From positions 64,001 to 128,000 of the forward strand of contig JBMOPW010000035.1 of NCBI GenBank assembly GCA_049322915.1: a stretch of 64,000 nt of DNA. Reading direction: 5' to 3'. The position numbers were made by a program. This stretch comes from Candidatus Zhuqueibacterota bacterium (lineage in GTDB: Bacteria; Zhuqueibacterota; Zhuqueibacteria; Thermofontimicrobiales; Thermofontimicrobiaceae). Below are positions 12,001 through 21,000 of the stretch, piece by piece. Position 1 is the first letter of the stretch. The number at the start of each line of letters is the position of its first letter.

Positions 12001-15000
12001 CTCTGGAACAAATGACGGTCGCGCTGCTGATCAATGCAATCGAAGCCATCCCTGAGGGATCGGGAAAAATAAACATCGCGTTGGAGAGAACAAATCAGGG
12101 GACGACGTACTCCATAAAAATCAGCGACAACGGCGTAGGCATCGATGAAGCGGCAATTCCCCATATCTTTGAGCCGTTTTATTCGACTAAGACCAATGAA
12201 AAAAGCGTGGGACTGGGATTAGCCGTGGTGTACGGCATCGTCGAACGTCATCAGGGCGCCATCCAGGTGAAATCACAAAAGGACGTGGGGACGATTTTCA
12301 CCATTGAGCTTCCTGTTTCAGAGTGAAATCCGCCCCGTGAAATGGTGCCGATTCCGCTGCAGATGACTTCCATCAGAACTTATTGAAAATATTTCGAGGT
12401 TTATTTTATGAACAACAAAGATATCAGCATTCTGATTGTCGATGATGAATTTTCGGTGCGGGACTCGCTCTGCCAATGGTTCAAAGCAGAGGGCTTTCAT
12501 GTGGCGACAGCGGAAAGTGCGAATACTGCGTTCGAAATGTTCAAACGTCAGACCTGGGATATTGTTCTGCTGGATATCAGAATGACGGGGATGGACGGGA
12601 TCGAATTCAACAGGCACATCATGAGTGTGGACAAAAGCGTCATCGTCATCATGATCACTGCATTCGCCACCGTCGAAACGGCGGTGCAGGCGATTAAGGA
12701 TGGGGCGTTTGACTATATTTCAAAACCAATTGATCCGGAATATCTATCGCATATCGTCCGCAATGCCCTGGAAAAACGGCAACTGGCGCGGGAGAATATT
12801 CAACTTCGGGAGCGGATCGAAGATTTGACCACGCCGGATGATATTATTGGCACGTCGGCGCGGCTGCGGGACGTGCTGAAGATGGTGGCCTCGGTCGCCA
12901 AATCCGATAGCACCGTGATGATCCGCGGTGAAAGCGGCACAGGGAAAGAACTGATTGCGCGCGCCATTCACAGCAATTCCCATCGCCGGTACGCGCCGAT
13001 CATCTCCATCAATTGCGGCGGAATGACTGAGTCGTTGCTGGAGAGTGAATTATTCGGCCATGAAAAAGGCGCCTTCACCGGCGCGGAACGACTGCGGATT
13101 GGCAAATTGGAGCGCGCCAATAAAGGTACAGTTTTTTTCGATGAAATCGGGAACATCAGCATGAAGATGCAAATGGACTTGCTGCGCGTGCTGGAAACAA
13201 AGCAGTTCACCCGACTGGGCAGCGAAAAACAGGTTGAAGTGGATTTTCGGGTAATCAGCGCCACAAATAAAGACCTGGAAAAGGCGGTCAAGTCCGGCGA
13301 TTTCCGCGAGGATTTATATTTTCGGTTGAATGTCATCTCGATTGAAATGCCTACGCTGCGCGATCGAAAAGAGGATATTCCGTTGCTGGCGCGATTCTTC
13401 TTCAATAAATACAGGCAATCCATGTCCAAGCCGATCAAGGACATATCCCAGGACGCAATGGAAACACTATTGAGCTACGAGTGGCCCGGCAACATCCGTG
13501 AATTGAGAAATGTGATCGAACGCGCAGTTGTCGTCTGCGACAATATTGTGATCAAACCCGACCATTTCACATTCCCATTTCGGGACAAATTCACATCGGC
13601 GGCATTCACAGATTACAGTCTGGAGGGCGCTGAGAAGATGCAGATTCAGCGGGTGTTGAAGCAAACCGGCGGCAACATTTCCAGGTCAGCAGAGATTCTG
13701 AAAATCGACCGCACGACGCTGTATAACAAGCTTAAAAAATTTGATCTCAACAAAATGACTTCATTCGAATGATCCGCGCCATTTTCACGCCATCGACGAA
13801 AGCTCCCGATTCCCCCGCCGGCCAATTCACGCGCCGGAAATAACCGCCGGACATTCAGCCATTCCGAGTTACTGCAAATGAAAATCCGCTACCTCGGTCC
13901 CACTGGTTGGGCAAAGTAACGGATATGCATTTTCCCCACTCACCGCTTGTTCCGACGCCGTCCTCTCCTGTCGTGCATTACTTCATCAAAGAAGCACGAT
14001 GAGCGGACCAGCGAGCATATTCTCCTAGTGGATGGATTGATGGACGTCTTATTTCAATTGTATGCCGCGTTCATGGTTAACAACCTGCCGCCTCTAATGG
14101 AGTGAACGGTCAGGTTGTCAGGTCTTTATTCTACCGGATGTAACTTAAAAGGCTCCTTTTCTGCTGATGGGACTGAGGCCAGTTTATTGGAATTGCTGTC
14201 GCTGTGAACTGCAGCACAGGCAACTAGCAATCACAATTTACGAACGCCTCCACTCCATCACTCGAAAGATTTGCGTTGGAAGTACTCGCTGTAAGCCGCC
14301 CACAGGCTGGTAACAAAACGCTCCGTGTCGTCTGCCGGTTTCCCTTCTGCCTGTTGCAATGATTCTTCCAATTTAGTGTTGATCATCTTGCTGATCTCGT
14401 GAAATCTATCAATTTCCTTCTGATACCATTGCATTGTGTCCGAGCCAATCTTCAGCCCCGGCAGTTCATTGCTGAGATTCTCCGGTTCGATGTTGCACAT
14501 CCATCCAAGTTCATACGGCTTGATATTGACATAATCGATATGGTCTTCGAGATTGGCATTGATCGATACCACGGTTCCGCTGATGGGAGCGGGAAAATTC
14601 AGGGACTGGTCGCCGCGCTGCACGGTGAACAGCAAATCACCTTTTTTGACTTTCTGCCCCTTCTTTGGCAGAACAACGCTTTTGATTTTGCTCAAAATCT
14701 TTTGGGAGAAATCATCGATGCCGACGCGCGCCAATCCGTTCAAATCAATTCTGACCCAGGTGTGAGTCGGCGCTATGAAAATCCCGGCTGGCACATTAAA
14801 TTCATGGCTTGATTTGGACTCGCCGTGCGAAGGAGTAATGAGATGCACCGCCGGCTTGGTGACACGCTCGATCTTGTCCTGGCGCCGGATTAACGACTTG
14901 TTGACAAAATCCACCAATTCATCTTCAGTGAATGGCTTTTGCACATAATCCGTGGCGCCGTATTTCATGGTCGCCACAGCGGTTTCAATGGTCGCGTAGC

Positions 15001-18000: not shown

Positions 18001-21000
18001 CAGATCCCTTGAAAATACGCCCATGTCATCCAGCAGAATATCTGATGTGAGCGAACCGGCCTGGCAGGTCTCTGACAGTTTGTACTCCAGCCATTTCATT
18101 TCATCCAGATACCAGGAGAATAACGTCTCTCCATTTCGACAATATGAAAGATCCTGGCTTAAATTTTTTGGTTCCACAATCAACATCCACCCGCGATTCA
18201 CCGGATCGAGCGTCAACTGGTTCGGCGCGAGTTGCAGTTCTGGATTCACGACTTTGATCCGGCCAGCTACCGGCGTCGGAATGGAAAAATTGTACTTCCC
18301 GCGTTTCACGTGGCCACAGCATCCGCCTTTTGTAATTTTTTCATCGACGCGGGGAAGCGTGATTTCATCGACAGAACCTAATACAACAGCGGCGACATTA
18401 TCAATGCCCAGTTTCACCTCGTGGGGACCAACAATCTCGATCCAGACATGCCGGGAACTGACAAAATAATTTTCACTCTGCTTGATTTTCACCAGGTGAT
18501 CGAGCGATGAAAAATATCTGAATGAATTGCGCGTGATAACGCTGGCGTCGGTGAAAAATCCCCGCAACGCCTTCTCCAACGGGCAGTTTTCGCACTCAAA
18601 ATTTCTATTGCAAATCTTGTAGGATAACTCTCCCAGTTCAACCCAATCACAGACACTATCACTTTTATCGATCAAGTGGGATAATGGTTTTGGTCTGGAA
18701 TTTCCCATGAGTATAAATCCCTTCTCATCTGACATTGTTCCCGGTTTTCAAGATATAAAGGCAATGTTCAAATTCTATGCCAATTTTCTAATGTCAAATA
18801 AAACATTACATTAAACATTCAATAAAAATATTTTCTGATGTGAAAAACCACACAGGAGTTGAAAAATTCAACACTACACTCGAGCCTGCATTTTGATATC
18901 CTTCTGTTATTATTAATTTAAACTCCCTGGCATAAAGATTGCGTAATCGCAATAGGTGAACTTATTTTTTTTTATTATTAGATCAACGTTGCACAGTTCA
19001 ATATAACCATTGGAGGTACTCATTGGAACTAACAAGAAGAAACTTTCTGAAATTCACTGCAGCCACCGGCACAGTGGGCATTGCCGGTGCTGCGAAGAAA
19101 GCGTCTGCTTATTCAGAAAAGCCTCTTGCAGCAGAATGGATGGGAGTGCTGGTCGATACGACAGTCTGTATTGGTTGTCGCAAATGTGAATGGGCCTGCA
19201 ACACTGCCAACAAGCTTTCTGAAAAATCCATTACTGAGTTCGAGGATAAGTCCGTGTTTGAGCAAATGAGAAGGCCGGACGATACCGCCTACACCGTCGT
19301 CAACGAGTATGAAAACACGAAAAACCTGCAACTCCCCTATCATGTCAAAGTCCAATGCATGCATTGCAATAGCGCGGCATGCGTCTCGGCATGCATCGTC
19401 GGAGCGCTGACAAAACACCAGCAAACAGGAACCGTTCATTACGATCCCTGGAAATGCATCGGGTGTCGCTACTGCATGGCGGCATGCCCATTTCAAATCC
19501 CTGCATACGAGTATCACAACGCATTGACGCCTCAGATTCGCAAGTGTACATTCTGCTTCGATCGGATTACACAGGCAGGTGGTATCCCTGCCTGCGTTGA
19601 GATATGCCCGGTCGAAGCGCTCACCTTTGGAAAGAGGAACAGCCTGATTCAGGTGGCGCGCGAAAAAATTGCCAGACAGCCCGAACGATACGTCGATCAT
19701 ATCTATGGCGAGCACGAATTGGGCGGAACCTCGTGGATGTACCTTTCTGGCCGACCCATGGAGGAAATGGATATGGAACGTTTCGGCAATCGCCCGATTC
19801 CCCAATATACCGAACCAATCCAGCATGCGATTTTTAAAAATTTTATACCGCCGCTTTCCTTGTTCGCGTTCCTGGGCATCATCATGAAATTGTTCAAAGA
19901 CAGGGACAATGGCCATTCAAAGGAAGGAGGTTCAAAATGAGTTCTCACCATGTCGCTGCTAAACCTGTGAACAAGAAATTTTTCACAACCGGCGTAAAAA
20001 TACTGTTCGCACTGTTTGGAACCGGAATGGCCTTTGGCCTGTATCGTTTCATCTTTGGCCTGGGTTCGGTCACCCATTTGAACAACCAATTTCCACTGGG
20101 TTTATGGATTGGCGTTGACGTTGCCAGCGGCGTTGCGCTGGCTGCAGGCGGATTCACGACAGCCGCATTGATTCATATTTTCTACCGCGACAAATACGCT
20201 GTATTCGGAAGGCCGGCGCACCTCACCGCGATGCTGGGATACACTTTTGTAGCCCTCGGCCTGTTATTCGACCTGGGCCGATGGTATAACGTCTGGCATC
20301 CAATGCTGCCGATGATGTGGCAGGGGAATTCCGTGCTCTTCGAAGTCGGCATCTGCGTGATGATGTACCTGACGGTTCTTTACATTGAATTCGTACCCAT
20401 TGTTGCTGAGCGCTTCATCGGAAAATCGCCCAAATGGATCGATTCGATCCTGAGAGTCCTCAACAGGATACTGGATAAAATCATGTGGATTTTCATCATC
20501 CTTGGGGTATTATTATCCTGTCTGCACCAATCTTCACTGGGGAACCTCATGGTCATTGCTCCCTATAAAATGCATCCGTTATGGTACACTCCAATTTTGC
20601 CGCTATTATTCCTTGTCTCGGCGATCGCTGTCGGCCTGCCCATGGTTATCTTTGAATGTACCATTGCCTCGAAATCGTTCGGCTGCAAACTGGAAATGGA
20701 CGCTTTAACGCCGCTATCCCGCATCGTCGCTGTGCTGCTGAGCCTGTACCTCTTCCTCAAGGTCGGTGACCTTACCATTCGCAACGCCTGGGGATACATT
20801 TTCGATGGCACCTATCAGACCAACTTCTTCTTGCTGGAGTTAGTCGCTGGCATTCTGGTTCCGCTGATCATGTTTCTGATGAAGAAGGTGCGGCAATCCC
20901 CGCCTCTGTTATTCACGGCAGCAGCCTTATACATCGTATTCGGCGTATTACTGAATCGAGTCAATGTATTTTTCATTGCCTATCGACCTAAATATATGAC

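Follow-up and report, generated by a model that had tools for sequence, protein, structure and literature searches.

Response regulators with a predicted lipoate-free GcvH fold are genetically linked to a membrane FeS/NrfD/cytochrome module

The locus described here raises the question of what response regulators with a GcvH-like domain do beside the genes of a membrane redox module. The window (the whole stretch of DNA analyzed, 64,000 nucleotides from a Candidatus Zhuqueibacterota bacterium) carries a minus-strand operon of four genes, at 14258-18708, that encodes a Cys4-GcvH-like protein (P0004) and, immediately downstream of it, a sensor kinase (P0003), followed by a soluble REC-GcvH regulator (P0002) and a membrane-anchored one (P0001) (Table 1). 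This operon is divergent from a plus-strand FeS/NrfD/cytochrome operon, downstream of which lies FdhA with Sec at residue 188. An earlier note had described the four genes, and all were present as described; the Pfam domains of P0001, P0002, and P0004 gave the same residue ranges and E-values on re-run, and the noted context was borne out as well (Tat FeS, NrfD, multihaem cytochrome, MobA, FdhD, FdhE, Sec-FdhA, second FeS, second NrfD). The likely start of P0004 is M10, where all of its relatives begin, and the gene end (18708) and the GCV_H numbering (85-188) follow from this start; the open frame reaches 18735.

Table 1. Features of the locus, in window positions
Feature	Position	Strand	Evidence or remark
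Paralogous dihaem-motif sensor kinase	10728-12326	+	Pfam; motifs CIFCH, CYNAACH
NtrC-type sigma-54 activator	12408-13772	+	Pfam
P0001, membrane-anchored response regulator, 390 aa	14258..15430	-	Pfam, AF2 model, Foldseek, TM motif
P0001 helical C-terminal extension, residues 324-390	14261-14461	-	
P0001 lysine-less GcvH fold, residues 222-323	14462-14767	-	Pfam GCV_H 4.8e-24
P0001 receiver, residues 67-176	14903-15232	-	Pfam Response_reg 1.1e-27
P0001 TM helix, about residues 2-24	15359-15427	-	
P0002, soluble response regulator, 264 aa	15507..16301	-	Pfam Response_reg 1.1e-25 (residues 8-115), GCV_H 1.5e-16 (152-257); 40-sequence alignment
P0003, sensor histidine kinase, 515 aa	16285..17832	-	Pfam HAMP, HisKA, HATPase_c
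P0003 c-haem motif CWQAECH	17338-17358	-	periplasmic domain
P0003 c-haem motif CFVCH	17473-17487	-	periplasmic domain
P0004, Cys4-GcvH-extension protein	17932..18708	-	Pfam GCV_H 5.3e-15, AF2 model
P0004 Cys motif C-x12-C-x5-C-x2-C	18583-18651	-	
Weaker sigma-54-like element TGGCAT-N5-TTGAA	18767..18782	-	one mismatch; -12 GC missing
Candidate sigma-54-type -24/-12 element TGGCAT-N5-TTGC	18928..18943	+	consensus match; starts 95 nt before FeS start codon
Tat-exported four-cluster-type FeS protein, HybA/HmcB-like	19023..19940	+	Pfam Fer4_11, TAT_signal
NrfD-family integral membrane quinone-interacting subunit, HybB/HmcC-like	19937..21127	+	Pfam NrfD 4.8e-22
Periplasmic cytochrome c, signal peptide	21162..22292	+	13 CxxCH motifs

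All three GcvH-like proteins score above the gathering score of Pfam PF01597, and the H-protein fold is retained in the models of P0001 and P0004. The AF2 model of P0001 (pLDDT 83.2) matched the E. coli H-protein (3ab9) with a TM score of 0.92, an rmsd of 1.8 Å, and an E-value of 1.8e-11 in Foldseek, and that of P0004 (pLDDT 83.8) matched the pea H-protein (1dxm_A) with Z 17.4 and rmsd 1.8 over 131 aligned residues (VIA-align). Unlike true GcvH, P0001 and P0004 reached only 71.3 and 45.8 bits against TIGR00527 (cut-off, 115.85 bits); P0002 scored 60.4 bits with NF002270 (cut-off, 117), and TIGR00527 was outside the 25 best families listed for it. The three proteins also differ from GcvH in being encoded beside a kinase and regulators, without linkage to gcvP or gcvT, and in having additional parts, namely, a TM helix, a receiver, a Cys4 motif, and a C-terminal extension. 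A canonical GcvH of 125 aa is kept on another contig of the genome, beside a 447-aa ORF. The lipoyl-site alignment that had been made by eye was reproduced with MAFFT, which set EAVKAV of the canonical protein against QRGDQS (P0001), SEDYLN (P0002), and KRGKYN (P0004); the lipoyl-lysine column holds D in both regulators and K in P0004. The latter lysine, which had been raised as a caution, does align with the site but is not conserved, given that R, E, E, E, and P take its place in the five closest relatives. One of the 113 long regulators and 6 of the 136 Cys-motif relatives have a lysine in this column, and none of the 40 short regulators does; the hairpin residues are variable. Judged from these alignments, the predicted lipoate-free GcvH fold is a family trait.

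The phospho-acceptor pocket of the receiver is intact in both regulators. In the alignment of 113 relatives of P0001, which are 59-92% identical to it across the full length, the pocket residues D71, D72, D115, T143, and K165 are invariant, as are many residues of the GcvH region, and C312 is nearly invariant; the best 120 relatives listed span the same range of identity and come from many phyla. In the 40-sequence alignment of the soluble regulators, D56 and K106 are invariant and T84, C199, and R201 nearly so. The 41 homologues previously counted for P0002 (P0006-P0046; 203-273 aa, 35-81% identity) were recovered, and 40 of them contain both Pfam families. P0002 has neither a TM helix nor a C-terminal extension, an absence that counts against reading these regulators as acting at the membrane module. 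The P0001 and P0004 families could be aligned over the GcvH fold and extension (hhalign probability 100, E 1.7e-40, 179 columns, 212-390 versus 82-264); on this profile comparison, the recurring unit, which the anchored regulator and the free-standing protein share by homology, is a GcvH fold with a helical C-terminal extension. CheY, DivK, and RssB-type adaptors are response regulators with protein-interaction outputs. The REC-GcvH proteins resemble them in having a receiver that is phosphorylatable by sequence, no DNA-binding domain, and an output that is presumably a protein contact; they differ in that this output is a GcvH fold and that one form is anchored in the membrane. Our literature search found no GcvH-fold response regulator in print.

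P0004 adds a cysteine motif to the same unit, and an alignment of 103 sequences shows no variation at C29, W31, C42, C48, and C51. Among its relatives, the Cys4-GcvH module is fused to a kinase transmitter (Cys4-GcvH-HisKA-HATPase, P0263) and to 2Fe-2S and 4Fe-4S ferredoxin domains (P0309, P0366, P0315, and P0283). In a sample of 16 Desulfobacteria-class loci, Cys4-GcvH genes occur with a PAS kinase, NtrC, and an M54 peptidase.

The kinase P0003 has a periplasmic domain between two TM helices, followed by HAMP, HisKA, and HATPase domains. The CxxCH and Cx4CH motifs of its sensor domain are found as a pair in 54 of 57 kinases that adjoin a REC-GcvH gene, spaced 43-44 residues apart. The sensor domain of P0003 matched no Pfam family at cut-off (Mcp40H-20_sensor, 17.6 with a cut-off of 27; sCache_4, 14.9 with a cut-off of 22.1), and a sequence search for a solved-structure relative returned none. 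Extracytoplasmic sensor domains with covalent c-type haem that feed signalling modules are described for the PAS-type GSU0582/GSU0935 (PMC3460858) and for the DUF3365 haem-Cache domain (PMC12889525). The putative c-haem domain of P0003 would resemble these in being extracytoplasmic and driving a signalling module; it differs in having two motifs, CxxCH and Cx4CH. A paralogous kinase in the window is 32% identical to P0003 over 526 aa and, with the NtrC-type activator next to it (10728..13772), probably forms the branch of this sensory system that acts on transcription. The sigma-54-type element before the FeS gene is one of 14 strict matches in 1,363,481 bp (window plus 79 loci, both strands). 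The weaker element precedes M10 of P0004 by about 59 nt, and one-mismatch matches in the window (13 versus 9.45 expected) are not above chance. The paralogous dihaem kinase, the NtrC-type regulator, and the element before FeS thus suggest a transcriptional arm beside a nontranscriptional one. Strict sigma-54 promoters are rare in other REC-GcvH loci, and a transcriptional arm like the present one is therefore not a general feature.

The FeS protein of the divergent operon is Tat-exported and has a C-terminal TM anchor (residues 269-292), as in HybA and HmcB. The best NCBIfam families for the FeS and NrfD proteins are HybA/HybB of hydrogenase 2 and HmcB/HmcC of Hmc. Neither complex is a match by score: HmcB reached 329.9 bits (cut-off, 420), HmcC 288.3 (550), and HmcA 56.1 (400), with HybA at 251.2 bits (263) and the HybB type at 330 (450). 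Among the genes scanned, from 10.7 to 32.8 kb, there was no hydrogenase and no 16-haem HmcA, in place of which the window has a 13-haem cytochrome. This protein had been taken for a nine-haem cytochrome, which the count of CxxCH motifs contradicts, and it scored 39.6 bits against the NCBIfam 'nine-heme cytochrome c' (NF045784; cut-off, 640). Orthologues of about 380 aa come after FeS-NrfD in 24 sources. Cbc4 (CbcSTU) of Geobacter sulfurreducens is encoded by three genes, for a tetrahaem cytochrome c anchored in the membrane, an FeS protein, and a subunit resembling NrfD, and the accessible part of its account mentions no regulator (bioRxiv 10.1101/2025.04.14.648717). As far as Cbc4 is described there, the same gene composition stands behind the anchored regulator in 29 loci, including one from a Geobacteraceae genome (L027), with a small multihaem cytochrome of about 150-230 aa first and FeS and NrfD after it. 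The window differs from Cbc4 in its order of FeS, NrfD, and 13-haem cytochrome, and its NrfD is 51-60% identical to its own (FeS-NrfD-13-haem) subtype versus 30-37% to the Cbc4-like one.

The REC-GcvH genes are tied genetically to the FeS/NrfD/cytochrome module across many phyla. Of the 600 pattern matches listed, 560 were confirmed, which puts the anchored regulator in no fewer than 560 species genomes. NrfD lies no more than 4 genes away from 67 of 84 anchored regulators, and 12 of the 84 are in loci without an NrfD ORF, mostly short contigs. Across 80 sources, REC-GcvH ORFs were present in 77, a kinase in 69, NrfD in 67, and FeS in 57, with co-directional gene orders such as FeS>NrfD>Cyt>HK>RG>RG and RG>cyt c>FeS>NrfD>HK>RG. 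The link extends to the membrane helix, in which the motif D-x2-3-[LIVM]-[RK] was found in 74 of 84 anchored regulators, in all 5 mini-proteins of 86 aa from FeS/NrfD operons, and in 6 of 12 free-standing GcvH-like ORFs, all six being of the 223-aa TM type; the background was 3 hits among 1144 other ORFs and a single one among 58 soluble regulators. The first gene of some FeS/NrfD operons is a receiver-less TM-GcvH-extension gene.

The minus-strand operon is best explained as a dedicated two-component branch. The conserved motifs suggest that the periplasmic domain of the kinase binds two covalent c-type haems, through which it may sense how reduced the periplasmic cytochrome pool is or detect a haem ligand, NO for example. 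From its co-operonic position, and with the acceptor pockets intact, the kinase would be expected to transfer phosphate to both receivers. By homology, the effector of both regulators is the lipoate-free GcvH-fold unit and not a DNA-binding one, joined in the anchored protein by the helical extension. A helix with a conserved Asp/Arg motif would hold this protein in the membrane, where its GcvH-extension unit could dock on the tail-anchored FeS/NrfD/13-haem cytochrome quinol module, at its cytoplasmic face or its membrane part, given that FeS/NrfD operons also encode this helix and this unit in receiver-less form. With the receiver inserted, docking would come to depend on phosphorylation, and electron flow or proton uptake would be adjusted after translation. 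P0002 may act as a phosphate sink or competitor, P0004 may provide a second cytoplasmic input that is metal or Fe-S based, and the paralogous kinase, NtrC, and sigma-54 would set the expression of the module.

Gene linkage and the conserved membrane-helix motif lead us to favor, tentatively, phosphorylation-controlled action of the GcvH-fold regulators at the membrane FeS/NrfD/cytochrome module. Several observations count against it. None of the 16 Desulfobacteria-class Cys4-GcvH loci showed an FeS or NrfD ORF over about 8 kb, and the GcvH-like fold thus does not require that module. Since the FeS protein and the cytochrome are periplasmic and the GcvH units cytoplasmic, the parts within reach would be limited to NrfD loops, the FeS tail, and membrane helices. 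The P0263 fusion, with the unit N-terminal in a histidine kinase, fits a role inside signalling. The unit could accordingly be a signalling adaptor on the kinase or on an NtrC-type activator, with the REC-GcvH proteins connecting the two paralogous dihaem kinases or providing feedback between them and with sigma-54-dependent transcription of respiratory operons as the final output. Lipoyl domains serve as docking sites for mitochondrial PDH kinases, whose fold is histidine-kinase-like, and PDK-L2 entries came up as weak fold matches (Z 4.9). This adaptor role would also suit the position of P0004 directly before the kinase gene, the adjoining paralogous kinase and NtrC, the element preceding FeS, and the NtrC-type ORFs in 24 of 80 sources and 13 of 16 Desulfobacteria-class loci. 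However, 56 of the 80 sources have no NtrC within 10 kb, and in the Desulfobacteria-class loci the GcvH-like gene is the one downstream of exact sigma-54 promoter matches and not obviously a regulator of that promoter. An adaptor role, which we consider rather unlikely, would also leave unexplained why the anchored form shares operons so tightly with FeS/NrfD and why its membrane helix is conserved.

It is quite improbable, in our estimate, that the fold carries or senses a group other than lipoate, either on a conserved cysteine or in the lipoyl-arm cleft, with the receiver controlling access and the Cys4 forms holding a redox-active metal centre. Each subfamily does have a nearly invariant cysteine (C312 or C199), the Cys4 motif is invariant in its 103 sequences, and ferredoxin fusions of Cys4-GcvH exist. 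These cysteines nevertheless differ in place among subfamilies, with none near the hairpin in P0001, the hairpin residues are variable, and no modifying enzyme is conserved in the neighborhood of the loci compared. Branched two-component pathways commonly include single-domain or sink receivers, and the GcvH-like parts might be decayed, functionless remnants on proteins that serve only as phosphate sinks for the kinase. This we regard as barely credible, given that the GcvH region and extension are conserved as strongly as the receiver (113 relatives, 59-92% identity) and that the unit persists without any receiver.

The proposal made in the earlier note, that the GcvH fold was recruited as a nonlipoylated output module coupling two-component signalling to a membrane redox complex, therefore stands in part. 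The fold is intact, predicted to be lipoate free, fused to intact receivers, and gene linked to a redox module. The term 'output module' is too narrow, given that the GcvH-extension unit occurs without a receiver, as the N-terminal part of a histidine kinase, fused to ferredoxins, and, in Desulfobacteria-class genomes, behind sigma-54 promoters. Collectively, putatively lipoate-free GcvH regulators encoded with a haem-motif kinase and a quinone/FeS/cytochrome module suggest that respiration is probably tuned without a step through gene expression, and these regulators belong to a widespread, unstudied gene set.

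The REC-GcvH proteins, which join a receiver domain (REC) to the fold of the glycine cleavage H-protein (GcvH), a lipoyl carrier, are a real, conserved and undescribed family. The 120 best listed relatives of the membrane-anchored regulator P0001 (390 aa) show 59-92% identity to it and all contain both Pfam domains, and at least 560 matches were confirmed among the 600 pattern matches listed in species genomes (one per species). Record titles place the family in KSB1, Ignavibacteria, Acidobacteriota, Gemmatimonadota, Burkholderiales and several Gammaproteobacteria as well as in Calditrichota, Bacteroidota, Planctomycetia, Geobacteraceae and Desulfatibia. 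Our literature search found no publication on receiver-GcvH fusions, and the NrfD review PMC8076601 does not mention "response regulator," "two-component," "histidine kinase" or "glycine cleavage." In the literature texts searched, GSU0067 was absent, and mentions of GSU0071 were confined to two expression tables that call it a "hypothetical protein."

In the window, the minus strand holds four consecutive open reading frames (ORFs) at 14258-18735, each at most about 100 nt from the next or briefly overlapping it. The ORFs of the sensor histidine kinase P0003 and of the soluble regulator P0002 (264 aa) overlap by 17 nt at 16285-16301, which is consistent with translational coupling and a single operon. 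Pfam reproduced the domain calls of the earlier note for g03962, g03963 and g03965 almost to the digit, and its end coordinate of 18708 for the gene of P0004, a free-standing GcvH-like protein, matches a start at M10, the most likely one judging from where its relatives begin. The divergent operon on the plus strand encodes an iron-sulfur (FeS) protein, an NrfD-family protein and a cytochrome c that is not the nine-haem cytochrome it had been taken for, given that we counted 13 CxxCH motifs in it. HmcB/HybA and HybB/HmcC are nearest to the FeS and NrfD proteins, all curated cut-offs being missed. We found no additional small transmembrane (TM) gene at 13772-14258 or 22292-23000. Beyond the REC-GcvH cluster, the only GCV_H match over the cut-off in this genome is a single canonical GcvH (125 aa) on a different contig.

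Features of the window discussed in the text, with positions, strands and domain assignments
Feature	Position	Strand	Remarks
Multihaem cytochrome c fused to cytochrome b561-type membrane domain	616-2577	minus	
Sigma-54-like element	2625-2640	minus	one mismatch; before the cytochrome c/b fusion gene
NtrC-type activator	3135-4460		
ORF	4833-5318		weak PilW-like match only (NCBIfam)
Rhodanese-domain protein	6779-7783		
Beta-barrel porin	7814-9058		weak match
Multihaem cytochrome	9071-9949		
Second haem kinase	10728-12326		NtrC-type sigma-54 activator gene after it
P0001, anchored regulator		minus	receiver 67-176, GCV_H 222-323 (residues; Pfam)
P0002, soluble regulator		minus	receiver 8-115, GCV_H 152-257 (residues; Pfam)
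P0003, histidine kinase		minus	HAMP, HisKA, HATPase_c (Pfam)
P0004, free-standing GcvH-like protein		minus	GCV_H as sole domain (Pfam)
Sigma-54-type element	18928-18943		TGGCAT-N5-TTGC; begins 95 nt upstream of the FeS start codon
FeS protein	19023-19940	plus	Tat signal, C-terminal membrane anchor
NrfD-family protein	19937-21127	plus	
Cytochrome c	21162-22292	plus	13 CxxCH motifs
MobA, FdhD, FdhE		plus	after cytochrome c
FdhA	25461-28487	plus	downstream of MobA, FdhD and FdhE; Tat signal; in-frame TGA, codon 188 (...ARIUHSAT...), read as selenocysteine (Sec188)
Second FeS/NrfD pair		plus	after FdhA; FeS protein without Tat signal
Sigma-54-like element	30478-30493	plus	one mismatch; before the thioredoxin-like gene
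Thioredoxin-like gene	30513-31679		

The genes in the region 616-9949 are of the kind usually seen in extracellular electron transfer, and their ORF clusters also adjoin REC-GcvH clusters in four other loci (L006, L010, L055 and L072). The rhodanese and the outer-membrane channel paired there (6779-9058) are reminiscent of GSU2940/GSU2939, names that appear in an expression table of PMC10599522.

The families of P0001, P0002 and P0004 have the GcvH fold without its lipoyl site. An AF2 model of P0001 built from 113 sequences (pLDDT 83.2, pTM 0.54) superimposes on the E. coli H-protein with a TM score of 0.92 and an rmsd of 1.8 A, and a model of P0004 built from 103 sequences (pLDDT 83.8, pTM 0.71) matches the pea H-protein over 131 residues (Z 17.4, rmsd 1.8 A). 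The matches from a wide VIA-align search with the P0004 model were confined to the GcvH part (residues 98-198), the N-terminal four-cysteine (Cys4) part and the C-terminal extension being barely covered. When each family was aligned to the genome's own canonical GcvH, lysine at the lipoyl-lysine column was confined to 1 of the 113 anchored regulators and 6 of the 136 Cys-motif relatives and was absent from all 40 soluble regulators. This column and the residues beside it vary; in the anchored family, the site three residues upstream is lysine in 80 and arginine in 11 of 113 sequences, but it is not strictly conserved and lies off the hairpin tip. The replacement of the lysine that the earlier note had described for the two fused proteins holds for the families of P0001 and P0002; P0004 itself has an aligned lysine, yet its five closest relatives read R, E, E, E and P. 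The fold is that of GcvH, but the three proteins differ from it in the defining lysine, in equivalog scores, which fall under the NCBIfam GcvH cut-offs, and in gene context.

The GcvH-like unit consists of this fold and a helical C-terminal extension, which the soluble regulator does not have. In a profile comparison, the anchored family (212-390) and the Cys-motif family (82-264) aligned over 179 columns with a probability of 100 and an E value of 1.7e-40. Neither the extension and TM region of P0001 nor the N-terminal Cys4 region of P0004 belongs to a Pfam family, every match lying far under the cut-off. Judged by its residues, the membrane helix is a motif rather than a mere anchor. Defined as a hydrophobic run, D/N, 2-3 residues, [LIVM] and R/K within the first 60 residues, this motif was found in 74 of 84 anchored regulators, in all six receiver-less TM-GcvH-extension proteins of 223 aa (6 of the 12 ORFs of that cluster) and in all five 86-aa mini-proteins, which contain the helix and a "DGG" stretch but lack the GcvH fold; matches elsewhere numbered 3 among 1144 other ORFs and 1 among 58 soluble regulators. 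Given the shared helix motif and these receiver-less proteins, the anchored regulator looks like a TM-GcvH-extension protein into which a receiver was inserted behind the helix. In Ignavibacteria-type loci the receiver-less genes head a second FeS/NrfD operon. This divergent operon (about 1-3200 in each of L042, L043, L058, L079, L081 and L083) encodes the 223-aa protein, an FeS protein (251-292 aa), NrfD and the first part of a Cys4 protein, with the 86-aa DGG mini-protein in five of the six loci; its FeS protein has a C-terminal anchor and no Tat signal (checked in L042 and L058). P0004 represents a large family of its own. At E<=1e-3, an exhaustive search with it yielded 2392 cluster representatives, of which 433 also passed E<=1e-10; the weaker matches may include canonical H-proteins. 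Of the 150 best matches, 131 have an N-terminal C-x11-15-C-x5-C-x2-C motif. Across 103 aligned sequences (mean identity 26%), C29, W31, C42, C48 and C51 are invariant, and in P0309, P0366, P0315 and P0283 2Fe-2S and/or 4Fe-4S ferredoxin domains precede the Cys4-GcvH unit; the Cys4 region is likely a metal or Fe-S site.

The association with the FeS/NrfD/cytochrome module, which the earlier note had described for this genome, holds across phyla by gene neighborhood. ORFs were called and clustered in 79 loci plus 40 kb of the window. Among these 80 sources, REC-GcvH ORFs occurred in 77, the kinase cluster in 69, NrfD in 67, FeS in 57, a small multihaem cytochrome in 29, and a 380-aa cytochrome and NtrC-type activators in 24 each. 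NrfD lay at most four genes from the anchored regulator in 67 of 84 cases, and the 12 of 84 anchored regulators in loci without an NrfD ORF were mostly on short contigs. The gene orders are co-directional across loci (RG, a REC-GcvH gene with its length in aa; HK, histidine kinase): FeS>NrfD>Cyt380>HK>RG268>RG386 in the Ignavibacteria type, HK>RG265>RG387>FeS>NrfD in KSB1 and Gemmatimonadota, and RG390>small cytochrome>FeS>NrfD>HK>RG262, at times followed by a second RG387, in Proteobacteria and others. The NrfD of the window is 51-60% identical to Ignavibacteria-type sequences and 30-37% identical to those of the other types. A preprint (bioRxiv 10.1101/2025.04.14.648717) describes Geobacter Cbc4 as a membrane-anchored tetrahaem CbcS, an FeS protein CbcT and an NrfD-like CbcU. 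The RG390 type has this gene composition, a likeness of composition and not of compared sequences, and a Cbc4-like gene order is present in a Geobacteraceae genome (L027).

The receivers of both regulator families are intact and, by sequence, functional: D71, D72, D115, T143 and K165 are invariant in the alignment of the anchored family, as are D56 and K106 in that of the soluble family. The periplasmic domain of the kinase carries CxxCH and Cx4CH haem motifs spaced 43-44 residues apart, and 54 of the 57 kinase ORFs adjoining a REC-GcvH gene contain both, the other three being short (207, 320 and 390 aa). This domain reached the cut-off of no Pfam family (subthreshold matches only), and no solved relative was found by sequence; a multicopper oxidase, the sole match (E 0.046), was taken as chance. 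Haem-c sensor domains are described for Geobacter chemoreceptors (PMC3460858) and DUF3365 Cache domains (PMC12889525), and the kinase domain matches neither at threshold.

A second kinase in the window has the same haem motifs (32% identity to P0003 over 526 residues). From this paralog, the NtrC gene behind it and the sigma-54-type element before the FeS gene, one sensor type seems to feed two branches in the window, one transcriptional and one nontranscriptional. The strict sigma-54 pattern matched 14 times in 1.36 Mb (window and loci, both strands), and such elements before these operons are rare in the other loci. The loose pattern was not enriched in the window (13 matches versus 9.45 expected), so the weight falls on the strict form and its placement.

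Our overall reading is that a haem kinase signals through the receivers to a regulator acting at the FeS/NrfD membrane module, which we regard as quite possible, if a little short of an even call. The kinase would detect redox conditions in the periplasm or a ligand of its haems and pass phosphate to both receivers. The anchored regulator would work on the module at its FeS-tail/NrfD part, with the receiver as the switch, while the soluble regulator may serve as a competitor or phosphate drain and P0004 may contribute a cytoplasmic metal-based input. A more specific version, in which a HybAB/Cbc4-type quinol:cytochrome c oxidoreductase has the anchored REC-GcvH protein as an accessory subunit switched by phosphorylation, is a candidate we consider rather doubtful. 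The conserved Asp/Arg membrane helix would then pack on NrfD or the FeS tail, with the GcvH-extension unit opening or blocking the cytoplasmic side of a quinone/proton path.

The main alternative is that the GcvH unit acts within signaling, on a kinase or NtrC, which we judge unlikely. In its favor is P0263, a P0004 relative that is predicted to be a soluble kinase, with a Cys4-GcvH unit as the part N-terminal to HisKA and HATPase_c. Also in favor of a role within signaling are the Desulfobacteria-class cassettes. In a class sample built around a Desulfatibia genome, 95 of the 151 members had a match at E<=1e-8, including some ORFs of canonical size. An NtrC-type ORF was present in 13 of 16 stretches around such matches, and an FeS/NrfD ORF in none of the 16 (BLAST against window proteins); the GcvH-like fold is thus not confined to FeS/NrfD modules. 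The cassettes (L120-L135) combine a PAS kinase, an NtrC-type activator, Peptidase_M54 (the ORF after NtrC in three loci by Pfam scan) and one or two Cys4-GcvH-extension genes (about 300-320 aa). The strict sigma-54 pattern matched 12 times in these stretches: six exact -24/-12 elements lie 57-91 nt upstream of the called start of the first Cys-motif GcvH-like ORF, two fall no more than 31 nt into ORFs that were called too long (L120 and L134), and one (L127) is unplaced. These positions suggest that the GcvH-like genes there are driven by predicted sigma-54 promoters. A carrier or ligand-holding role for the fold seems improbable to us, and we think it highly improbable that the GcvH-like part is a functionless remnant.

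If the anchored regulator is indeed an accessory subunit, a two-component system would control a respiratory complex directly, within seconds, with the haem-c kinase feeding information on the periplasmic redox state back to the complex responsible for it. The lipoyl-carrier fold would gain a second, cofactor-free function. Three more elements are undescribed: the dihaem-c sensor domain of the kinase, the invariant Cys4 motif and the TM motif shared by three architectures. To our knowledge, Geobacter Cbc4 is a complex without an assigned role; given that a sister subtype has its gene composition, the REC-GcvH regulators may hint at the conditions under which Cbc4 matters. We know of control of the respiratory chain in anaerobes and metal reducers almost solely at the level of transcription. 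The REC-GcvH gene set is present in at least 560 species genomes, among them Ignavibacteria, KSB1, Acidobacteriota, Gemmatimonadota, Burkholderiales, Gammaproteobacteria and Geobacteraceae, and with it the idea that phosphorylation directly controls a quinone-linked membrane complex can be put to the test.
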